DNA of 64,000 nucleotides from an uncultured Gemmatimonadales bacterium (GCA_963771275.1 CAVYSW010000010.1:32001-96000), one strand, 5' to 3'. Shown: positions 3,287-53,849, counted from the first letter of the stretch. Made by a program: numbers and translations. Notes: generated by a model not told the origin, from the sequence alone.

Positions 3287-3357
3287 TTGCCCCCCCGGGA
3301 TTCGAACCTGCATTCCCGGATCCAAAGTCCGGTGTCCTGCCGTTGGACGAGAGGGCA
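3287..3357 (-). tRNA. tRNA-Gln(TTG), second copy with a mismatched T-stem
   Basis: Same acceptor and anticodon stems as copy 1; T-stem GCAGG/CCCGG has G49.G65 and A51.C63 mismatches. Confidence 0.85.
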
Positions 3358-3700: not shown

Positions 3701-3754
3701 CGGTCATCGGCCAACGGCCAACCGCCAACGGCCAACGGCTAACGGCCAACGGCA
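3701..3754 (+). repeat. Heptamer tandem array (CGGCYAW)x7
   Basis: CGGTCAT CGGCCAA CGGCCAA CCGCCAA CGGCCAA CGGCTAA CGGCCAA. Confidence 0.95.
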
Positions 3755-25709: not shown

Positions 25710-25786
25710 CGTTCGCCGTTCGCCGTTCGCCGTTTGCCGTGAGCCGTGACCGGAACGCGGCACGTCGGCCATCGGCTATCGGCTAT
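25710..25786. repeat. Opposed heptamer arrays between the MFS gene and gltX
   Basis: CGTTCGC x3 CGTTTGC CGTGAGC CGTGACC, then CGGCCAT CGGCTAT CGGCTAT. Confidence 0.9.
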
Positions 25787-27104
25787 CGCCTTCCGGCTCC
25801 CAGTCCTGCGCCGCGTCGAGCCGGCCGAGGCTCTCCTCGCGGCCGACGGCGACGAGCAGCTCGTTGACCGGCTCGGACACCGCGCATCCGGTGAGCGCGA
25901 TCCGCACCGGCTGCATCACGGCCCCCGCGCCCACGCCGCGCCGCTCGGCGAGGGCGCGCAGCTCCGTCTCCAGCCGCGCGGGCTCCCAGGCGTCCGTCGG
26001 GAGGGCGGCGAGGTGCTCGCGCACGGCGCGGAGCATGGCGCGGAAGCCCGCGAAGTCCTTGGCCATGGTCTGCCGCGCCTTGGCGTCGTCCTTGGCGATG
26101 TGTCGCCGGTCGAGCCGCACCGCGACGCGCTGCGCCAGCTCGATGGTGGTGCGCGACCGGCCGCGGATCGACGCGATGCAGCCGAGCACCCGCTCGGCCG
26201 GATACGCGTCCGGATCGACGCCGAGGGCGCGGAGGTGCGGCGCCAGGATTCCGGCCAGCTCGGGGAGCGGCATGTGATTGAGGTACTGCCCGTTCATCCA
26301 CTCGAGCTTGGTCATGTCGAACACGGCGCTCGTCTTCTGCACCCGCTCGATCGAGAATACGGCCACCAGCTCGCCCAGCTCGAAGTAGAGCTCGCGGTCG
26401 TCGCCCGGATTCCAGCCCAGCAGGGCGAGGAAGTTCCGCATCGCGGCGGGCAGGATGCCCATGTCATGGTAGTCGCCCAGGGCGGTGGCGCCGTGCCGCT
26501 TGGAGAGCTTCTTGCCGTCCGGGCCGTTCAGCATGGGCAGGTGGGCGAACTGCGGGGTCGGCGCGGCGAGTGCCCGGTACACCGCGATCTGCTTGGGCGT
26601 GTTGGAGACGTGGTCCTCGCCGCGCATCACGTGCGTGATCCGCATGTCGATGTCGTCGCACACCACGCTGAAGTTGTAGGTCGGCGTCCGGTCGGACCGG
26701 AGGATCACCCAGTCCTTGACGTCCCGGCCCTGGAAGCTGATCCGCCCGTACACCAGGTCGTCCCAGGCGATCTCCGCGTCCGGCATGCGGAACCGGACGG
26801 CGCCCTCATCGAGGTACGCCGTGCCATCGGCCACCAGCCGGTCGGCCACCTCCCGGTGGCGCGCGAGCCGCGCGCCCTGAAACACGACCTCCTCGTCCCA
26901 GTCGAGCCCCAGCCAGGTGAGCCCGTCGAGGATCACGCGCGTGAGGGCGTCGGTCGAGCGCTCCTTGTCGGTGTCCTCGATGCGGAGCAGGAAGGTGCCG
27001 CCGAGCCTGCGCGCGAACAGCCAGTTGAACAGGGCGGTGCGCGCGCCCCCAACGTGGAGATACCCGGTAGGGGACGGCGCGAACCGGAGGCGGACTTCCG
27101 TCAT
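25776..27104 (-). CDS. gltX: Glutamate--tRNA ligase
   Basis: RFAPSPTGYLHVGG, RIEDTD, RGEDH and KLSKR motifs; anticodon-binding domain present. Confidence 0.97.
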   Translation of the reverse strand: MTEVRLRFAPSPTGYLHVGGARTALFNWLFARRLGGTFLLRIEDTDKERSTDALTRVILDGLTWLGLDWDEEVVFQGARLARHREVADRLVADGTAYLDEGAVRFRMPDAEIAWDDLVYGRISFQGRDVKDWVILRSDRTPTYNFSVVCDDIDMRITHVMRGEDHVSNTPKQIAVYRALAAPTPQFAHLPMLNGPDGKKLSKRHGATALGDYHDMGILPAAMRNFLALLGWNPGDDRELYFELGELVAVFSIERVQKTSAVFDMTKLEWMNGQYLNHMPLPELAGILAPHLRALGVDPDAYPAERVLGCIASIRGRSRTTIELAQRVAVRLDRRHIAKDDAKARQTMAKDFAGFRAMLRAVREHLAALPTDAWEPARLETELRALAERRGVGAGAVMQPVRIALTGCAVSEPVNELLVAVGREESLGRLDAAQDWEPEGDSR

Positions 27105-27252: not shown

Positions 27253-27362
27253 CCGTCAGCCGTTAGCCGTTGGCCGTTAGCCGTTAGCCGTTGCCCGATA
27301 GCCGTTGGCCGATAGTCGACACAAAGGCAGTCCGCTGCACGCTGCACGCTAAACGCTGCACG
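27253..27362 (-). repeat. Composite heptamer element (CGTGCAG)n-ACTGCCT-(CGGCYAW)n on the minus strand
   Basis: CCGTTAG/CCGTTGG/CCGATAG units, AGGCAGT at 27325-27331, then CGCTGCA units. Confidence 0.92.
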
Positions 27363-34969: not shown

Positions 34970-35389
34970 CTACTCCCGAAGGATCTTCCGCACGATCTCC
35001 AGAAACCTGGTGAGGTCGAGCGGCTTCGTCAGATAGCGATCGGGGCGGATCATGTCCACTTCGGGAGCGCGCGGAAACCGCTCGTCGGGCGATTCCTGGA
35101 TCGACGAGACCATGATGATCGGCGTCTGCTGGAAGGCGCTGTACTCGTCCGAGTACTTGATCGCCTCCGTGACGCCGTACCCTTCGGTGATACTCTCCAT
35201 CATCACGTCAAGCACCATCAGGTCGGGCCGGTGCTTCCGCAGTTGGCGGAGTCCTTCCAACCCCGAATCCGCCTGGACGACCGTGTAGCCCTCGCGCTCC
35301 AAAACCGCGCGTACGGTCGTGGCGAAATCCTCGTCGTCATCAACGATGAGAATGACCTTGGTGCCTCGGCGGGCTTCCGTCGCGGACAT
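34970..35389 (-). CDS. Single-domain response regulator
   Basis: IVDDD, LDVMM and TKP motifs; AAGGAG RBS. Confidence 0.92.
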   Translation of the reverse strand: MSATEARRGTKVILIVDDDEDFATTVRAVLEREGYTVVQADSGLEGLRQLRKHRPDLMVLDVMMESITEGYGVTEAIKYSDEYSAFQQTPIIMVSSIQESPDERFPRAPEVDMIRPDRYLTKPLDLTRFLEIVRKILRE

Positions 35390-35467
35390 GATCGGCTCCT
35401 TCCCGTGCGGGTGGTCGCCGTCAGCAACCGGTGAGCGGAATGGGAGCGCACCCACCGATGCACGGCC

Positions 35468-35476
35468 ATCATAGCA
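35468..35476 (-). promoter_or_regulatory. Putative extended -10 promoter (TGCTATGAT) for the regulator-hydrogenase operon
   Basis: TGn-TATGAT in the divergent intergenic region. Confidence 0.45.
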
Positions 35477-35607
35477 CGGCGGCCCTGAAGGAAGGCTGAA
35501 TTCCGGGCGAAGAACCACCCCGGCTCAAGCCGAGGAACCCTGTCGGACTTGCCGCACGCGCGCGATCGTCTGCGCATCGTCTGTGGCGCCACTATCTTTC
35601 CGGCTCC

Positions 35608-37677
35608 ATGACCACCGCCCAGGCAGCACCGCAGGGCATCCGGCCGCCGCCGGACGTGAACCCGCGCGCGGAGCCCGCCCTCGACTTCCCCGACCGGGAG
35701 TACGGCGAGCTGGCGCCGGCGGACTACGCGACGCTCGGCTTCCTGGGCGGACTCGAGGTCCACCAGCAGCTCGCGACCCGCGGCAAGCTGTTCTGCCGCT
35801 GTCCGGCCGGCCGCTACGCCGAGCGCTGCGACGGCGAGGTGCTGCGCCACATGCGGCCGACCCTGAGCGAGCTGGGGGAGTACGACGGCACCGCGCTGAT
35901 GGAGTTCAAGACCAGGAAGGAGATCGTCTACCTGCTCGAGCGCGGGTCGGTCTGCACGTACGAGATCGACGACACGCCGCCGTTCCCGATCGACGACGAG
36001 GCCGTGGAGATCGCGCTCGCCGTCGCGCAGCTGTTCGCGCTGAATCTGGTGGCCGAGCTGCACGTGATGCGGAAGCAGTACCTCGACGGCTCGATTCCCA
36101 CGGGGTTCCAGCGCACCGCCATGGTGGGCCTCACCGGCCGCATCCCGTTCCACGTGCCCGAGCTGGGCGTGCGCCGCGAGCTCGCGATCCGCCAGCTGTC
36201 GCTCGAAGAGGATGCCTGCCGTGAGGTCTCGGACGTGGGCCATCGCGTCACGTTTCGCACCGATCGGCTGGGCATGCCGCTCACCGAGGTGGTGACGGAG
36301 CCGGAGTTCCGCACGCCGCTCGAGGTCCAGGCGGGCGGCCGCCTGCTCGCGCAGGTCGCGCGCGCGACCGGCCGGGTCCGCCGCGGGGCCGGCGCGGCGC
36401 GGCAGGACGTCAACGTCTCGGTCGCCGGGGGCCGGCGGGTCGAGATCAAGGGCGTGGACAACCACCGGCATCTGCCGCGGCTGGTCCACGGCGAAGCGTA
36501 CCGCCAGCTCAACCTGCTGCGGCTCCGGGCGGAGCTCGCGCGGCGCGGCGTCACCACCGACCTGCTGCGCCTTCCCGACAAGCGGCTCCCGTGGGAGGTC
36601 TCCCCGCTGGTGGCCGACGTGAGCGGCGCGTTCTCCCGGGCGCGCTACGCGCCGCTCCGCCAGGCCCGCGACCAGGGCATGACGGTCTGCGCGGTGCGGC
36701 TGCCGGGCTTTGGCGGGCTCCTCACCCAGCGCACGCAGCCGGGCCTCACCTTCGCCTACGAGCTGAGCGAGCGGGTGCGCGTCATCGCGTGCCCCGCCCA
36801 CCAGCGATTCATGGCGCATTCCGATGCGCCGGAGGGCATCCCGCCGGCCAGGTGGCGGGAGGCCCGCGCCGCCGTGCAGGCGGAGACCGGGGACGCCGTC
36901 GTGCTGGTCTGGGCGGACCGCGCCGACGCCGCCACCGCCGCCCGCGAGATCCTGCTCCGCGCGCAGGACGCGACCCTGGGCGTGCCCGCCGAGACGCGCC
37001 AGGCGCACCGCGGCGGGACGACCGGATTCGAGCGCATCCTCCCGGGCGCCGACCGGATGTATCCCGATACCGACACGCCGCCCGTCCCGATCGCCGACGC
37101 CCTGATCGAGCGGGTGCGGGCGACGCTGCCGGAGCCGCCGTGGACGCGCGCGGAGCGGTATGGCGCGCTGGGGCTCGATGAGGTGGCGGCGCACCGGCTC
37201 GCGGGGTCCTCGTGGGCGCGGCTGTTCGACCAGGCGGCGCCCCCCGCCGGAGGGCTCGCGCGCCGGCTCGCGGCGAGCCTCGCCAAGCGGATGCCGTTCC
37301 ACGCGCGCGCGGGCCGCTGCGCGCCGGAGACCGCGGGCGCCATGCTGCGCGGCGCGGTCTCGCGGATCGCGGCGGGGGAGATCCGGCCGGAGGCGCTGGA
37401 TCGCCTGGTGGATGCCGCCGTGACTGCAGGCGACGCGGCGGTGGAGCCGACGCTCGCGCGGTTCGTGCGGCGCCCCGATGACGCCGCGCTGCGCGAGCGG
37501 GTGATCGACCGCGTCGCCCAACGGGCGCGGGCGCTCGCGAACCGCGGGCCGGCGACGCGGCTCCGCTGGTCGATGGGCCAGGCGATGCCCGAGCTGCTGG
37601 GACGGGCCGATCCGGCGGACGTGCGCCGCGGGCTCACGGACCGGCTCGGCGCGTCGGCCGGGGACGCCGCCCGATGA
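35608..37677 (+). CDS. gatE: Glu-tRNA(Gln) amidotransferase subunit E (archaeal type)
   Basis: GLEVHQQL..KLFC, RPTLSELGE, MRKQYLDGSIPTGFQRT, LEEDA, DRLGMP, RQDVNVS, VEIKGV, a long insertion, then GVPAETR..LPGADRMYPDTD. Confidence 0.93.
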   Translation: MTTAQAAPQGIRPPPDVNPRAEPALDFPDREYGELAPADYATLGFLGGLEVHQQLATRGKLFCRCPAGRYAERCDGEVLRHMRPTLSELGEYDGTALMEFKTRKEIVYLLERGSVCTYEIDDTPPFPIDDEAVEIALAVAQLFALNLVAELHVMRKQYLDGSIPTGFQRTAMVGLTGRIPFHVPELGVRRELAIRQLSLEEDACREVSDVGHRVTFRTDRLGMPLTEVVTEPEFRTPLEVQAGGRLLAQVARATGRVRRGAGAARQDVNVSVAGGRRVEIKGVDNHRHLPRLVHGEAYRQLNLLRLRAELARRGVTTDLLRLPDKRLPWEVSPLVADVSGAFSRARYAPLRQARDQGMTVCAVRLPGFGGLLTQRTQPGLTFAYELSERVRVIACPAHQRFMAHSDAPEGIPPARWREARAAVQAETGDAVVLVWADRADAATAAREILLRAQDATLGVPAETRQAHRGGTTGFERILPGADRMYPDTDTPPVPIADALIERVRATLPEPPWTRAERYGALGLDEVAAHRLAGSSWARLFDQAAPPAGGLARRLAASLAKRMPFHARAGRCAPETAGAMLRGAVSRIAAGEIRPEALDRLVDAAVTAGDAAVEPTLARFVRRPDDAALRERVIDRVAQRARALANRGPATRLRWSMGQAMPELLGRADPADVRRGLTDRLGASAGDAAR

Positions 37678-39066
37678 GCGGCGAGAGCGCCTACCGCGGC
37701 TATCGCGGTCCCTGCGTGGCCGTGATGCAGCGGCTCGGCTTCCGGGTGTGGAGTGAGGTCCGGATGCGGACCTCGCGCGGGGAGTTCGAGGGGCTCGTGC
37801 TGCCGCGGTCCGAGACCAGCGACGAGCACCACATCGTGCTGAAGCTCGGCACCGGCTACAACATCGGCATCCGCCACGACACCGTGCTCGCGGTGGAGCT
37901 GCTCGGCTACCGGGAAGCCGTCTACAAGATCCCCGAGCAGGCGTTCCCGGTGGATCCCGCTGCTGCCGCGCGTCAAGCTGTTCGGCACGGGCGGCACGAT
38001 CGCCTCGCGGCTCGACTACCGCACCGGCGCGGTGATCCCGGCGTTCACGCCCGGCGAGCTGTACGGCTCGGTGCCGGAGCTCGCCGACATCTGCAATCTC
38101 GAGACGGAGAAGCTGTTCGGCATCTTCTCCGAGAACATGGGGCCGGAGCAGTACGTGGTGCTCGCCGAGCACGTGGGCGAGGCGATCCGCGCGGGCTACG
38201 ACGGCATCGTGATCGGCCACGGCACCGACACGATGCACCACACCGCGGCGGTGCTGAGCTTCATGGTGCAGCGCCCGCCGGTGCCGGTCGTGATGGTCGG
38301 GAGCCAACGCTCGTCGGACCGGCCGTCGTCCGACGCGGCGCGCAACCTGATCAGCGCCACGTGGACGGCGGCGCGCGGGCCGATCGCCGAGGTGATGGTG
38401 TGCATGTTCGGCCCGACGTCGGACAGCTACAACCTGCTGCATCGCGGCACCCGGGTCCGCAAGATGCACAGCTCCTACCGGAGCACGTTCCGCACGCTGG
38501 GCGACATCCCGCTCGCGATGGTGGAGGACGCGGTCGTGACGCCGCTCAAGGACGACTGGCGGCCCCGCCGCAGCGATCGCGAGGTGACGGTCCAGGCCGT
38601 CTACGACGAGCGGGTGACGATCCTGTACTACTATCCGGGCATGCACCCGGACCTGCTCGATGCGCTGGTGGACCGCGGCTACCGCGGGATCGTGATCGCC
38701 GGCACCGGGCTCGGGCACGTGAACCGCAAGATCTATCCCGCGCTCGAGCGGGCGCACGCCGCCGGCGTGCACATGTACATGACGCTCCAGACGCTGTGGG
38801 GCTTCGTGCAGATGCAGGTGTACGAGACGGGCCGCGAGATCCTCCAGCTCGGCGTGGTGCCGCTGGCCAACATGCTGCCCGAGGTGGCGTTCGTGAAGCT
38901 GGGCTGGGCGCTCGGCGCGCACCCCGACGACCCGGCCGCGGTCCGCGCGCTGATGACGACCACGCTCGCCGGCGAGATGACGGAGCGGGAGCCGCACGAC
39001 GGATACCTGATTCTCCAGGGCGCCGTGCCGGAGATCAAGCAGTTCCTGGCGACGGTGTGGAAGTAA
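37674..39066 (+). CDS. gatD: Glu-tRNA(Gln) amidotransferase subunit D (archaeal type); one frameshift at about 37956-37958
   Basis: GatD N-domain (IVLKLGTGYNIGI), then in the shifted frame GTGGTIASRLDYRTG, HGTDT, GSQRSSDRPSSD, RKMHSS and GTGLGHV; removing one C from CCC restores a single ORF. Confidence 0.9.
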
Positions 39067-39070
39067 CGTG

Positions 39071-39147
39071 CGTGCAGCGTGGAGCGTGCAGCGTAACTGC
39101 CTCGGCTATCGGCCATCGGCTAACGGCCAACGGCCAACGGCTAACGG
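39071..39147 (+). repeat. Composite heptamer element (CGTGCAG)n-ACTGCCT-(CGGCYAW)n
   Basis: CGTGCAG CGTGGAG CGTGCAG, ACTGCCT at 39096-39102, then six CGGCYAW units. Confidence 0.95.
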
Positions 39148-39156
39148 AGACGTAGC

Positions 39157-40842
39157 ATGACGGAGCGGGGGGGGCAGGACTTCATCCGCGCGATGGTCGC
39201 GCGCGACACGGCGGCCGGCAAGTGGAGCAGCCGGGTCGCGACGCGGTTCCCCCCCGAGCCCAACGGCTATCTGCACATCGGGCACGCCAAGTCGATGTGT
39301 CTCAACTTCGGTCTGGCGCGGGAGCACGGCGGCACGTGCAATCTCCGGTTCGACGACACCAACCCGCTCACCGAAGACCAGAAGTACGTGGACGCGATCA
39401 AGCAGGACATCCGGTGGATGGGGTTCGAGTGGGCGGGCGAGTTCTACGCCTCGGACTACTTCGAGCGGCTGTACGACTTCGCGGTGATCCTGATCCAGCA
39501 GGGCAGGGCCTACGTGGATTCCCAGAGCGAAGAGGAGATCCGGCTGGGCCGCGGGAGCCTCACTCGGCCTGGTCTGGAGAGCCCCTATCGCCAGCGGTCG
39601 ATCGCCGAGAACCTTGATCTGTTCGCCCGGATGCGCGCGCGGGAGTTCCCCGACGGCGCGCACGTCCTGCGGGCGAAGATCGACATGACGCACCCCAACT
39701 TCCTGATGCGCGACCCGCTGCTCTACCGCATCCGGCACGCGTCACACTACCGCCGCGGCGACGCGTGGTGCCTCTACCCGCTGTACGACTTCACGCACTG
39801 CCTGTCGGACGCGATCGAGCGGATCACCCACTCGCTCTGCACCCTGGAGTTCAAGGACAACCGCGAGCTGTACGACTGGATCGTGCACGCGGTCGGCATC
39901 CCCGAGCCGCCCGAGCAGACCGAGTTCGCGCGGCTCAACCTGGACTACACGGTGCTGTCGAAGCGGAAGCTCGTGCGGCTGGTGCGGGAGGGCCGGGTGG
40001 GCGGGTGGGACGACCCCCGGATGCCGACCATCGCCGGCCTCAGGCGCCGTGGCGTGACGCCGGAGGCGATTCGCGCGTTCGCCGACATGGTGGGTGTGGC
40101 GCGGGTCGAGAGCCGGGTGGATCTGGAGAAGCTCGAGCACACCATCCGGGACGACTTGAACCTCCAGGTGCCGCGCGTGCTGTGCGTGCTCAAGCCGCTC
40201 AAGGTCGTGATCGAGAACTGGCCGGACGGGCAGGTCGACGAGCTGGAGGCCCCGTACTACCCCCACGACGTGCCGAAGGAGGGGGCCCGCACGCTGCCGT
40301 TCTCGGGCGTGCTCTACATCGAGCGGGACGACTTCCTGGAGGACCCGCCGAAAGGGTTCTTCCGCCTTGCCCCGGGGCGCGAGGTCCGGCTGCGCTACGG
40401 CTACCTGATCACGTGCACCGGGGTGGTCAAGGACGCGTCGGGGCAGGTGGTGGAGCTGCGCTGCACCTACGACCCGGCCACGCGCGGCGGCGATACGCCC
40501 GATGGTCGCAAGGTGAAGGGGACGATCCACTGGGTGTCGGCGGCGCACGCGCTCACCGCCGAGGTCCGGCTGTACGATCGGCTGTTCACCAAGCCGGACC
40601 CCGACGACGTGGGGGACGAGGAGGACTTCACGGCCACGCTCAATCCGGAGTCCCTCGTCGTGCTGCCGGATGCGCGCGTCGAGCCGAGCGTGGCGCTCGA
40701 CCCGCCGGGCTCGCGCTATCAGTTCGAGCGTCAGGGCTACTTCGTGAGCGACCTCATGGACTCGCAGCCCGGGGCTCTGGTGTTCAACCGCACCGTCCAG
40801 CTGCGGGATACCTGGGCCAAGGTCGTCGCGAAAGGTGCCTGA
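39157..40842 (+). CDS. glnS: Glutamine--tRNA ligase
   Basis: [46 protein letters not shown] and QFERQGYF motifs. Confidence 0.98.
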
Positions 40843-40848
40843 GCCCGG

Positions 40849-41538
40849 CTACATCCCGGCGCCGAGCAGGGCCGGGAAGTTCGCGATGACCTTCTTCTTG
40901 CCGTCGCCCGAGATCGGCTTGGCGCCGAGATAGACGTCGAACAGCGCCCAGCACAGGGCCGGTGACGCGATCGCCGGCCGCTCGGCGCCCTTCACCAGCG
41001 AGTGCAGCGTGCCGTTGGCGCAGGTGAACACCAGCTCCGCGTCCTTGGTCATCTGCTCGACGCTGAAGTAGCCGCGGAACGTCTGAAGCGCCTCCGCCCC
41101 GCCCGGCATGTTCATCTCGGCCGCGGCGCGCGCGACCCGGGGCCCGAGCGACTCCTCGAAGGCCGAGGCCATCGTCTCGCCGTCCACGTTTCGGGTCATG
41201 ACGAGCCGCAGGCTCATCGGGAACGTCAGCTTGATCAGCGCGTCGTAGAACGACGGGTCCTTCTGCAGCGTCTTGAGGTCCTTGCCGGCGAAGCTCGCGA
41301 GCTGTTGCCGGGCGGCGGCCGAGTCGACGTACAGGCCGAACGCGTAGACCTTCACCGCGAGGAAGGTCTTGGTGCGGAGCCCCGTGCCCATCAGAATCTC
41401 GTCGCCCGACGGGGTGGTGAGGTGCAGCGGGAACGGCACGCCGCTGCCGGGCTCGTTGACGGTTTGCTGCGCGGGGAGCGCGCCGGCGCCGAGCAACATG
41501 ACGCCCGCGAGCAGGGGAATGGCGGTGCGTTGCATCAT
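40849..41538 (-). CDS. Chalcone-isomerase-like secreted protein
   Basis: Signal peptide; GTGLRTK..VKVYAFGLYV and ALFDVYLG..PIS motifs. Confidence 0.85.
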   Translation of the reverse strand: MMQRTAIPLLAGVMLLGAGALPAQQTVNEPGSGVPFPLHLTTPSGDEILMGTGLRTKTFLAVKVYAFGLYVDSAAARQQLASFAGKDLKTLQKDPSFYDALIKLTFPMSLRLVMTRNVDGETMASAFEESLGPRVARAAAEMNMPGGAEALQTFRGYFSVEQMTKDAELVFTCANGTLHSLVKGAERPAIASPALCWALFDVYLGAKPISGDGKKKVIANFPALLGAGM

Positions 41539-43116: not shown

Positions 43117-43260
43117 TTACGGACCGCGAGCGGCCGGCATTTCAATGCGCACGGCGTAATACCGGGGAGGGTTCGATCTCAACTCCACGCCGTCCGTCCA
43201 CACGCGAAGGCTCGCGCCGGTATGGATGTCACGAGGGCTTCCGCTCACCCACGTCCCGCT
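43117..43260 (-). pseudogene. Possible 3' fragment of a DUF3221/YobA-like OB-fold gene
   Basis: GASLRVWTDGVELRSNPPRYYAVRIE resembles the family's C-terminal pattern as I recall it; no clear start. Confidence 0.3.
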
Positions 43261-43276
43261 CCCGGTGAATCCCCCC

Positions 43277-43741
43277 TCATCCAAGACGTCCCCGCGGCTC
43301 ATCGCCGCCAAGCCCGGGCTCGCCCACGTCCGCGTCGGCGTCGCGCAATTCCGGGTCCTTCGCCATTCTGGCCAGGGCCAGCGAACCAGCAGCGCAACCG
43401 GCACCCGACAGTGTGAAGATGGGGCCCAACACCAGAAAGTCATTCCCTCCAAGGGCGGCGGCCAACACGACGGCGAGCAGAAAACCACCAACGCCTCCCC
43501 ACGCTGCAAAGTGTGGCAGCGACATCTGATCAAACCTGCGACGGCCCTCAGCGATCCCGAGCACCGCCGAGAAGGTGACGCCGGCAAGGAAGCCGAGCAG
43601 ACCAAAGAACAGGGGAAACGGGACGTCGGCGGCGCCAACACCGACCACGAGCAGGAGGATGAGCCCCGCGCCGAACCATGCCATGGCCCAGATCAGGCCC
43701 ATCCCGATGGCTCCGCGAATTCGTCTGAGCCACTTCCTCAT
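43277..43741 (-). CDS. Four-TM hypothetical membrane protein
   Basis: GGAGG RBS; MRKWLRRIRGAIGMGLIWA start; four hydrophobic segments. Confidence 0.8.
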   Translation of the reverse strand: MRKWLRRIRGAIGMGLIWAMAWFGAGLILLLVVGVGAADVPFPLFFGLLGFLAGVTFSAVLGIAEGRRRFDQMSLPHFAAWGGVGGFLLAVVLAAALGGNDFLVLGPIFTLSGAGCAAGSLALARMAKDPELRDADADVGEPGLGGDEPRGRLG

Positions 43742-43954
43742 TACGACCTCCCGGTGCACTTGGACCGTTACTGTGGTCGCTTGCTTCCCGCCACACACAT
43801 GGACTTTGCATCGCAAAGTACGCGGTCGGCAGCTGGGGGACAAGCGCCGTGCGGTTCGGCGCCCCGCTGCGTGGTTTCGATGACGCGCCCCGTGGGGGGC
43901 TCGCGCATCGTCCCGCGTGACCCCTTGCGCGCCCTTTCGAGCCGAGCCGACCTT

Positions 43955-44503
43955 ATGGGCATGGCAGCTCCGACGTACTACACGGCCGACATGGTCCGGG
44001 CATTGCCGGACGACGGCAACCGCTACGAGGTGGTGCACGGGGAGCTGCTCGTGACCCCGGCCCCGCGCTTCTGGCATCAGGAGATCGTGCGCCGTCTGGT
44101 CCTCGGCTTGAGCGCGTACACCGCCCGCGAGTCGGTCGGCCACGTCATCGCCTCCCCTGCCGACCTCTCGTGGAGCGGGGACGTCCTGGTGCAGCCCGAC
44201 GTGTTCGTGGCCGACCTGACGGAAGCGCGCACGCTCGACTGGTCGCGGATGCGGCACCTGTTGCTGGCCGTCGAGGTCCTGAGCCCATCGAGCGCCCGCG
44301 CCGACCGGTTCACCAAGCGGCGATTGTACCAGGAAGTCGGCGTACCCGCCTACTGGATCGTGGACGCCGATCAGCGATTCGTCGAGGTGTGGACACCGAC
44401 GGCGACCTTCCCGGCGGTCGAGCGCGACCGGGTTACGTGGCGGCCGCCGGGCGCGGGCGCGCCGTTCGTGCTCGGGATCGCGGAGCTGTTCCAGCCGATC
44501 TGA
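43955..44503 (+). CDS. Uma2-family (PD-(D/E)XK) endonuclease
   Basis: RYEVVHGEL..P..HQ, QPDV, VEVLSPS, K..LY and YWIVD motifs. Confidence 0.93.
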   Translation: MGMAAPTYYTADMVRALPDDGNRYEVVHGELLVTPAPRFWHQEIVRRLVLGLSAYTARESVGHVIASPADLSWSGDVLVQPDVFVADLTEARTLDWSRMRHLLLAVEVLSPSSARADRFTKRRLYQEVGVPAYWIVDADQRFVEVWTPTATFPAVERDRVTWRPPGAGAPFVLGIAELFQPI

Positions 44504-53723: not shown

Positions 53724-53849
53724 CCGTTAGCCGTTGGCCGTTAGCCGTTGGCCGTTAGCCGATGACCGATTGCCGATTGCCGATTGCCGTTCGCGACCTG
53801 CGATTGCGAACCGATACCCATCGGCTAGCGGCCATCGGTATTCGGCTAT
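53724..53849. repeat. Opposed heptamer arrays
   Basis: CCGTTAG/CCGTTGG x5, CCGATGA, CCGATTG x3, then CGGCTAG CGGCCAT CGGTATT CGGCTAT. Confidence 0.95.

Follow-up and report, generated by a model that had tools for sequence, protein, structure and literature searches.

GatCAB is the usual amidotransferase of bacteria. GatDE has instead been called an archaeal signature, present 'exclusively' or 'only' in archaea, in papers of 2008 (PMC2330236), 2009 (PMC2811023) and 2022 (PMC9499178), and these sources rest their scenarios of how glutamine coding evolved early on upon that archaea-only claim. The present work concerns a gatE-gatD pair placed directly before glnS, the gene of glutaminyl-tRNA synthetase (GlnRS), in a 64,000-nt stretch of DNA (the window) from an uncultured Gemmatimonadales bacterium (GCA_963771275.1 CAVYSW010000010.1:32001-96000; genome label G000). 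The three plus-strand genes occupy window positions 35608-40842. Full-text searches found no paper describing GatDE in bacteria, and the locus adds a favourably placed example to a so far undescribed bacterial form of a known enzyme.

The archaeal GatDE enzymes with solved structures are those of M. thermautotrophicus, in complex with tRNA-Gln (2D6F), and P. abyssi (1ZQ1). Like them, the window pair is made of two subunits with an insertion domain and a YqeY-like tail, and the Mg ligands, the GatD Thr and Thr-Lys-Asp motifs and the RVRRGxG loop are common to both. However, the window GatE is only 31-40% identical to archaeal representatives and belongs to a separate bacterial clade and a bacterial host, whose tRNA-Gln carries U1-A72 and not A1-U72; a PxxRxRW-like stretch stands in place of the GXXAXGX motif, and AA in place of TI. 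The hosts also differ, since GlnRS is encoded alongside and the glutamyl-tRNA synthetase (GluRS) is of the bacterial type. According to a 2022 review, no archaeon has GlnRS (PMC9499178). As for the archaeal transamidosome, formed by non-discriminating GluRS (ND-GluRS) and GatDE, no archaeal-type GluRS partner was found in the host, whose only GluRS is bacterial (TIGR00464).

Bacterial GatCAB, for example that of Staphylococcus aureus (3IP4), performs the same chemistry, and GatB and GatE are paralogues. It is described as also reading U1-A72 (PMC2811023), and it differs from the window enzyme in its glutaminase, which is the amidase-type GatA there and the asparaginase-type GatD here, and in that GatE has the insertion domain. 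In Deinococcus radiodurans, Thermus thermophilus and Bdellovibrio bacteriovorus an amidotransferase is reported to be kept despite GlnRS and asparaginyl-tRNA synthetase (AsnRS), so that it looks surplus beside both direct synthetases, as it does in the window genome (PMC4206432). These three bacteria keep GatCAB, whereas the window genome has GatDE and the asparagine synthetase AsnB. Their GatCAB is used for the tRNA-dependent formation of Asn, as they are not known to have asparagine synthetase. The D. radiodurans GlnRS with its C-terminal YqeY domain (2HZ7) is of the same type as the window GlnRS, which ends before that domain.

Identity of GatE and GatD

The gatE gene (35608-37677, plus strand) is intact and encodes 689 aa with cradle, aspartyl-tRNA synthetase (AspRS)-like insertion, helical and YqeY-like tail domains. 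Its product scores 404.8 bits with TIGR00134 (cut-off 319.55) and 458.4 bits with NF003107 (only just over the cut-off of 456), and GatB models give only 50-134 bits. Residues 39-680 align to positions 2-615 (of 619) of 2D6F_C with 303 bits, insertion domain and tail included, and the alignment to the GatE structures from M. thermautotrophicus and P. abyssi is end to end. The Mg ligands of the kinase site in M. thermautotrophicus GatE are given as His15, Glu157 and Glu184 (PMC2330236); their counterparts in the alignment are His52, Glu200 and Glu227, which are invariant in all 72 bacterial rows and in 74-75 of the 75 archaeal-side rows (rows assigned to that side by tree position, five of them named as archaea).

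The gatD gene (37674-39066, plus strand; start ATG 37674, stop 39064-39066) carries a 1-nt insertion near 37959-37961 and was read through it. The N-terminal domain is encoded in the frame that starts with ATG 37674 (PF18195, 51.5 bits, cut-off 25.7) and the asparaginase part in the +1 frame (TIGR02153, 399 bits, cut-off 324), where PF00710 and PF17763 match too. The product aligns to P. abyssi 1ZQ1_A 89-437 with 361 bits and retains TGGTIAS, HGTDTM and RKMH. The roles of these motif residues were assigned by alignment from the literature, which describes an asparaginase-type Thr nucleophile and a Thr-Lys-Asp triad for GatD (PMC2330236).

In comparisons with two congeners, the ratio of nonsynonymous to synonymous substitution rates (dN/dS) was 0.28-0.29 for gatE and 0.13-0.18 for gatD, and both genes are under purifying selection. 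The pair retains every tRNA-binding domain together with the residues of the kinase and amidase sites, and it matches the archaeal enzyme over the full length. Judged by sequence, gatE and gatD are a true heterodimeric tRNA-dependent amidotransferase pair. The original prediction, which had read a GatE/GatD pair with catalytic motifs in a bacterium, is borne out by family scores over the cut-offs and by the aligned motifs. It had considered that the proteins might instead cluster with GatB or with plain asparaginases, and they do neither, as family scores and trees place them as GatE and GatD. Direct reading of the sequence also agrees with it on the ATGA overlap of gatE and gatD, the host-like GC content (GC) and the intact glnS after a 90-nt spacer.

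A bacterial clade of GatDE

GatE relatives were searched in contigs of one genome per species, which gave at least 593 loci, and the best 80 were analysed further. All of these 80 come from bacterial metagenome-assembled genomes (MAGs), with labels including Gemmatimonadota, Eisenbacteria, Krumholzibacteriota, Myxococcota, Planctomycetota, Acidobacteriota, Bacteroidota, Ignavibacteriota, Aminicenantes and Fibrobacterota. In 73 of them gatD directly follows gatE, and in the other seven the contig ends first. The closest named GatE proteins and loci belong to Gemmatimonadales or Gemmatimonadota MAGs, and databases already label the proteins of the bacterial clade as GatE. GatE representatives with 44-59% identity fall among the bacterial loci, whereas the named ones with no more than 40% (6 of 30 clusters carry an organism name) are from Heimdallarchaeota, Thermoplasmatota, Thermoprotei, Ignisphaera and a DPANN lineage.

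Trees were built from quick searches. In a FastTree phylogeny of 185 rows, all 72 bacterial loci fell into one clade (support 97) and four named archaea into another (96). A GatB-rooted IQ-TREE mixture-model phylogeny of 67 rows recovered the bacterial clade (36 rows) with an SH-like approximate likelihood ratio test (SH-aLRT) value of 100, and its sister (96) is a Heimdallarchaeota sequence, a single one from a quick search. The window GatE lies in a 13-row subclade (100) where Gemmatimonadota, Acidobacteriota, Myxococcota, Planctomycetota, Eisenbacteria and Krumholzibacteriota are mixed, and this mixing of phyla points to transfers of GatE among bacteria. Taken as they stand, the trees show bacterial GatDE as a large, old and monophyletic branch. 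A phylogeny had been proposed as a check on the original prediction, and it sets GatE in its own bacterial clade, apart from archaeal GatDE and from GatB; together with GC and synteny, the SH-aLRT of 100 supports the predicted ameliorated bacterial lineage, long resident in its hosts.

The host genome (3.86 Mb in 11 contigs, 96.7% complete, GC about 70%) is described as that of a soil-type bacterium of the phylum Gemmatimonadota. The GC of the locus is 0.69-0.76 compared with 0.68-0.78 across the window, and gatE, gatD and glnS are adjacent in six of the seven genomes of the genus (G000-G005, of which G001-G005 are independent assemblies), with gltX on the same contig in G004. Since this gene order recurs on independent assemblies, the contig is not chimeric, and both a chimeric contig and a recent archaeal import were rejected on the host-like GC, the synteny in congeners and the position of GatE in the bacterial clade.

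Amidotransferases and synthetases of the host genome

Neither GatB nor GatA was found in the genome. TIGR00133 matches GatE alone, with 78 bits, as does PF02934, and the best TIGR00132 match reaches 184 bits for a cut-off of 481; gatC was not searched. AsnRS (469 bits) and AsnB (385 bits) are present, AsnA was not found in the genome, and there are two copies of glutamine synthetase. With no GatB or GatA over the cut-offs and with GlnRS and AsnRS both present, GatDE is the sole amidotransferase and, on paper, is needed for neither amide aminoacyl-tRNA. This inventory, another check suggested at the outset, also showed no second GluRS.

The glnS gene (39157-40842, plus strand) encodes an intact GlnRS of 561 aa without the YqeY tail. 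It scores 707.6 bits with TIGR00440 (cut-off 425.8) and best, with 922 bits, against the GlnRS/YqeY fusion model NF011291, where the match spans positions 12-558 of 769 and the C-terminal YqeY domain is lacking. No YqeY or GatB_Yqey match was found in the genome outside GatE, whose tail is the only YqeY-like domain. Regarding solved structures, the window GlnRS gives 731 bits with 5BNZ_A and 679 bits with E. coli GlnRS. R30, Y211, C229 and Q255 of the E. coli enzyme, presumably the residues that define Gln specificity, are all retained, and on these pocket residues and structural scores the idea of a GluRS-like enzyme was rejected. The archaeal-type GluRS model TIGR00463 gives 311 bits on this protein, below its cut-off of 401.75. 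GlnRS fused to a C-terminal YqeY/GatB-tail domain was seen in Gemmatimonadota relatives (G094:C86, G138:C57 and G187:C80) and also among other bacteria with GatDE (L056:1626-3965); the L056 protein has 780 aa and a PF02637 match, and L053:975-3233 is of similar length (753 aa).

The only GluRS gene of the genome, gltX (25776-27104, minus strand, 442 aa), lies 8.5 kb from the block and encodes a bacterial-type enzyme (TIGR00464, 446.5 bits over two pieces). In alignments to PDB structures it lacks about 40 residues corresponding to E. coli positions ~98-138, a region described as a putative zinc-binding domain (PMC4381286). This short GluRS type occurs in 15 of the 25 Gemmatimonadota genomes examined. 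In two of them, G016 and G043, GatB is present, GlnRS is absent and a short GluRS, 63-64% identical to that of the window, is the only GluRS match, so that there it must charge tRNA-Gln with Glu. By analogy with this type, a relaxed GluRS specificity in the window genome is plausible. The position of Thermus Arg358 was dropped as a predictor of GluRS discrimination, since that rule does not transfer between phyla according to PMC3927822.

Distribution and co-occurrence

The phylum was sampled with 201 evenly drawn Gemmatimonadota genomes (one of them, G177, is flagged as unpublished and enters the counts only); on control genomes, the GatE model matched in the four archaea only. GatE was found in 13 genomes (10 of the 98 genera), GatB in 156 and GlnRS in 98. 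GatB is the only one of the three in 99 genomes and occurs with GlnRS in 57, five of which have GatE too. GlnRS is alone in 34 genomes, it occurs with GatE and without GatB in seven, the window genome included, GatE is alone in one (G170, 95% complete), and none of the three was found in three. It was therefore rejected that Gemmatimonadota with GlnRS retain an amidotransferase in every case, since both GatB and GatE are missing from 34 of the 98. GatE is present in 12 of the 98 GlnRS-bearing and 1 of the 103 GlnRS-less genomes (Fisher p ~0.001, an overstatement given the non-independence of related genomes). Of 30 Gemmatimonadota genomes examined, 29 have AsnRS and 28 have AsnB, regardless of their GatE status. 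Given these figures and the 99 of 201 genomes with GatB and no GlnRS, the phylum in general needs an amidotransferase for Gln and not for Asn.

Across phyla, 50 GatDE genomes from the 80 loci were chosen for diversity (10 Gemmatimonadota and 40 others). GlnRS is present in 45 of them, AsnRS in 46 and GatB in 27 (26 over the cut-off and one split), and 21 of the 23 without GatB have AsnRS. In most hosts, GatDE is surplus to both amide aminoacyl-tRNAs. GlnRS and GatB are both missing in two (G255 and G260, completeness not stated). Assembly gaps could lie behind all three genomes in which GatDE seems to stand alone (G170, G255 and G260), and their use as proof that GatDE is a capable sole route was dropped, as they are too few and of uncertain completeness. 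In G244, a GatDE bearer from another phylum, gatB lies in two adjoining pieces (C10:37864-39277; model positions 3-207 and 205-480) with an apparent frameshift.

tRNAs and recognition features of GatE

The window holds two tRNA-Gln(UUG) genes on the minus strand, both called by ARAGORN, at 1552-1623 (Rfam tRNA model, 60.2 bits) and 3287-3357 (47.5 bits), and a tRNA-Gln(CUG) gene lies elsewhere in the genome. As had been read for the two window copies, all three carry U1-A72, with A73. The tRNA-Asn likewise has U1-A72, with G73; tRNA-Glu has G1-C72 (UUC) or G1-U72 (CUC) and tRNA-Asp G1-C72. Since both tRNA-Glu species begin with G1, the first base pair can still separate tRNA-Gln from tRNA-Glu.

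The basic loop facing the first base pair (RVRRGxG) is of the GatE type in both the bacterial and the archaeal-side clades, and the 3-10 turn typical of GatB is not present in the window GatE. In bacterial rows the loop is followed by AA (64 and 58 of 72), in archaeal-side rows by TI (58 and 69 of 75). In the tail, the GXXAXGX motif has been implicated in telling tRNA-Gln from tRNA-Asn and rejecting the latter (PMC2811023); the window GatE reads GPATRLRW at that place. The most frequent residues in bacterial rows are P648 (27 of 72), R or K at 651 (36), R653 (37) and W654 (27); in archaeal-side rows, where the motif can be recognised, they are G (47 of 75), A (52) and G or S (43). It seems that the bacterial clade has exchanged GXXAXGX for a basic PxxRxRW-like stretch, in a part of the alignment that is less certain than its flanks. 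A changed tRNA recognition, as originally proposed, is thus partly upheld: the U1-A72 tRNAs and the loss of GXXAXGX would agree with it, but the loop by the first base pair is kept.

Compared with the first tRNA-Gln(UUG) copy, the second has a shorter D-loop and two non-compensated changes in the T-stem, giving mismatches, and may be a decaying duplicate. A fourth tRNA-Gln call (91 nt, C10:157418-157508) looks spurious. ARAGORN also returned many over-long tRNAs with poor stems, including several 'tRNA-Ala(cgc)', 'tRNA-Cys' and 'tRNA-Arg' of 85-98 nt, which look like false positives, so the genome count of 62 tRNAs is inflated.

Gene linkage and history of glnS

Within the fetched flanks (up to 4 kb), glnS lies near gatE-gatD in seven of the 80 loci, four of them from Gemmatimonadota, one labelled delta proteobacterium, one from Planctomycetota and one from Bacteroidetes. 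The gltX gene is divergently upstream of gatE in four of the 80, the two are likewise neighbours in G086, and glnS and gltX are adjacent in the relatives G071, G028, G026 and G138. These two genes are the only recurrent translation-related neighbours of gatE-gatD, the others being lineage-specific; asnS or aspS was never found beside the pair in the 80 loci.

In a GlnRS tree of 55 rows, the window GlnRS falls in a clade of 26 rows, 18 of them without GatE, that contains only Gemmatimonadota (support 95). GatE-bearing and GatE-less rows are interleaved, with at least seven label changes for 12 GatE-bearing rows. This indicates that glnS is native and was not imported together with gatDE. GatE, unlike GlnRS, groups with Myxococcota, Planctomycetota and Acidobacteriota sequences, and a transfer of glnS and gatDE between phyla as one cassette is unsupported, the GlnRS clade being confined to Gemmatimonadota.

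Some other neighbours were seen directly after gatD: a glutamine-synthetase-like gene in an Eisenbacteria MAG (L029:7454-8893) and an SDF sodium:dicarboxylate symporter in two Gemmatimonadaceae MAGs (L032:7591-8808 and L044:7516-8760). An Asp-Al exchanger (L090) and Lyase_1 genes (L078 and L103) were also found as neighbours. These few genes relate to the transport or metabolism of Glu, Asp or Gln.

Possible function of GatDE beside GlnRS

The favoured reading, given about an even chance, is that GatDE would amidate Glu-tRNA(Gln), serving next to GlnRS as a second route or for clean-up. The single bacterial-type GluRS would still load some Glu onto tRNA-Gln (U1-A72). GatE would bind the resulting Glu-tRNA(Gln) and phosphorylate the glutamyl side chain with ATP and Mg (His52, Glu200 and Glu227), GatD could free ammonia from Asn or Gln by means of the Thr of TGGTIAS together with HGTDTM and RKMH, and the ammonia would pass to GatE, so that Gln-tRNA(Gln) is released. 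We infer both the substrate, Glu-tRNA(Gln), and a GluRS of relaxed specificity. Most simply, GatDE would be a working Glu-tRNA(Gln) amidotransferase in the place held by GatCAB in 57 other GlnRS-bearing genomes of the phylum. In structural modelling, the GatE insertion domain is reported to fit GluRS and to clash with AspRS (PMC2330236, PMC2943598). It is retained in the window protein.

Several points weigh against this amidation route. Archaeal GatDE reads A1-U72, and the bacterial clade has another stretch in place of the GXXAXGX tail motif. Genomes in which GatDE is the only route found are very rare (1 of 13 in the phylum, 2 of 50 across phyla), and GlnRS alone suffices in the phylum, since 34 of the 98 GlnRS-bearing genomes have neither GatB nor GatE. 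Furthermore, 27 of the 50 GatDE genomes also keep GatB, which would be odd if both did the same job, and gatD has no single uninterrupted frame in the present assembly.

The last point leads to the possibility that gatD is truly broken in this strain and that the locus is a dispensable gene pair starting to decay, which is regarded as unlikely. The gene carries a 1-nt insertion (...GATCCCGC[T]GCTGCC..., the extra base in brackets), and the new frame has no ATG, GTG or TTG start upstream of TGGTIAS. The function is also surplus on paper and its distribution in the phylum is patchy (13 of 201 genomes, 10 of 98 genera). However, the extra base is absent in all six relatives, whose frames are intact, and in the contigs of all three public runs with coverage of the site, which a fourth run lacks. 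Two of the covering contigs (depth 13.9 and 9.6) have about 0.7% other differences from the window, and the third (depth 2.16) is identical to it over 171 nt except for this base. In the gatD part, the near-identical contigs differ from the window by seven substitutions, five of them at third codon positions of the frame used; four of the seven lie behind the shift, and three of these four are at third positions in the shifted frame. The reading frame stays open over the 371 codons after the shift, with a dN/dS of 0.13-0.14 in comparison with the two congeners. Being missing from all six relatives and all three covering runs, the extra base is either a consensus error, clearly the more probable of the two, or a very recent private mutation. 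For the same reason a programmed +1 frameshift was rejected, as the shift is not conserved. The original prediction had named a real gatD frameshift in a decaying locus as a reason to doubt it; the frameshift does exist in the assembly, but it is private to it and the codons behind it are under constraint.

A different role, rated as improbable, is that GatDE partners GlnRS, docking it as a tRNA-Gln-binding, fidelity or channelling partner. GatE is concentrated in GlnRS-bearing genomes of the phylum (12 of 98, compared with 1 of 103 without GlnRS, not independent), GlnRS occurs in 45 of the 50 GatDE genomes, and glnS is in the flanks at 7 of the 80 loci. Moreover, GlnRS is homologous to archaeal GluRS (TIGR00463, 311 bits) and is the only archaeal/eukaryal-type glutamyl- or glutaminyl-tRNA synthetase of the cell. 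Archaeal GatDE is reported to bind archaeal ND-GluRS without tRNA, with a dissociation constant of 100 nM (PMC2943598). The window GlnRS is also Deinococcus-like without the YqeY tail, and GatE holds the only YqeY-like domain of the genome. Nevertheless, GatE is missing from 86 of the 98 GlnRS-bearing Gemmatimonadota genomes and is therefore dispensable to GlnRS; on the GlnRS tree, the rows with GatE are dispersed, as described above; and the 45 of 50 figure has a high base rate, because several of the other phyla commonly have GlnRS anyway. A stronger form, somewhat more doubtful still, holds that GatDE would be a GlnRS-coupled module and not a redundant Gln route, with docking inherited from the archaeal enzyme, and would capture tRNA-Gln and correct or channel glutamyl or glutaminyl species. 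If true, it would explain why GatDE occurs almost only with GlnRS and why glnS is so often adjacent.

An equally doubtful alternative is that GatDE serves Asn by amidating Asp-tRNA(Asn) made by a non-discriminating AspRS, for which it can be said that tRNA-Asn likewise has U1-A72 and that the bacterial clade, lacking GXXAXGX, has basic residues there as in GatB (PMC2811023); however, the genome encodes AsnRS and AsnB (as do nearly all Gemmatimonadota genomes examined, regardless of GatE), 46 of the 50 GatDE genomes have AsnRS, as do 21 of the 23 that lack GatB, the 80 loci show linkage to glnS and gltX with no case of asnS or aspS, and the insertion domain said from modelling to clash with AspRS is kept (PMC2330236). 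The tRNA-dependent Asn synthesis once suggested for this locus therefore finds no support here.

Other features of the gene block

Upstream of gatE, a divergent response-regulator gene (34970-35518, minus strand; PF00072, 71.7 bits) has a terminator-like hairpin at 35535-35518 on the minus strand, which was assigned to it. As the response-regulator genes upstream run on the minus strand, gatE opens the plus-strand block. No promoter-like or terminator-like sites were found between gatE, gatD and glnS, the search for sigma-70-like promoters returning none, and gatE and gatD are probably co-transcribed with glnS. No known RNA family was found in 35000-41500, where the single hit is a chance match below threshold. 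Downstream of the block, an open reading frame with an Uma2 (putative restriction endonuclease) domain lies at 43226-44503 on the plus strand, and the reading frames between it and glnS have no Pfam match.

The spacer between gatD and glnS contains a tandem array of the heptad CGGCYAA (39103-39147, plus strand; Tandem Repeats Finder period 7, 5.4 copies). Such arrays occur at four intergenic sites of the window, the others being 3708-3752 (plus), 27253-27311 (minus) and 53724-53761 (minus), and the pattern has 19 overlapping matches in the window versus 0 expected by chance. Genome-wide there are 41 arrays of at least three units, with 3 to 22 units each, several of which stop a few bases short of a start codon. 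They look like a dispersed intergenic repeat family, and with 41 of them in the genome a glnS-specific control element was rejected.

Significance of bacterial GatDE

A large, old and monophyletic bacterial GatDE branch alters the archaea-only picture of this enzyme, its hosts having U1-A72 tRNA-Gln and usually GlnRS. The question raised is what the job of a strongly conserved tRNA-dependent amidotransferase may be in cells that have the direct enzymes. The window genome is a clean case for it, since GatDE is there the sole amidotransferase, directly before glnS and with the sole gltX 8.5 kb off.

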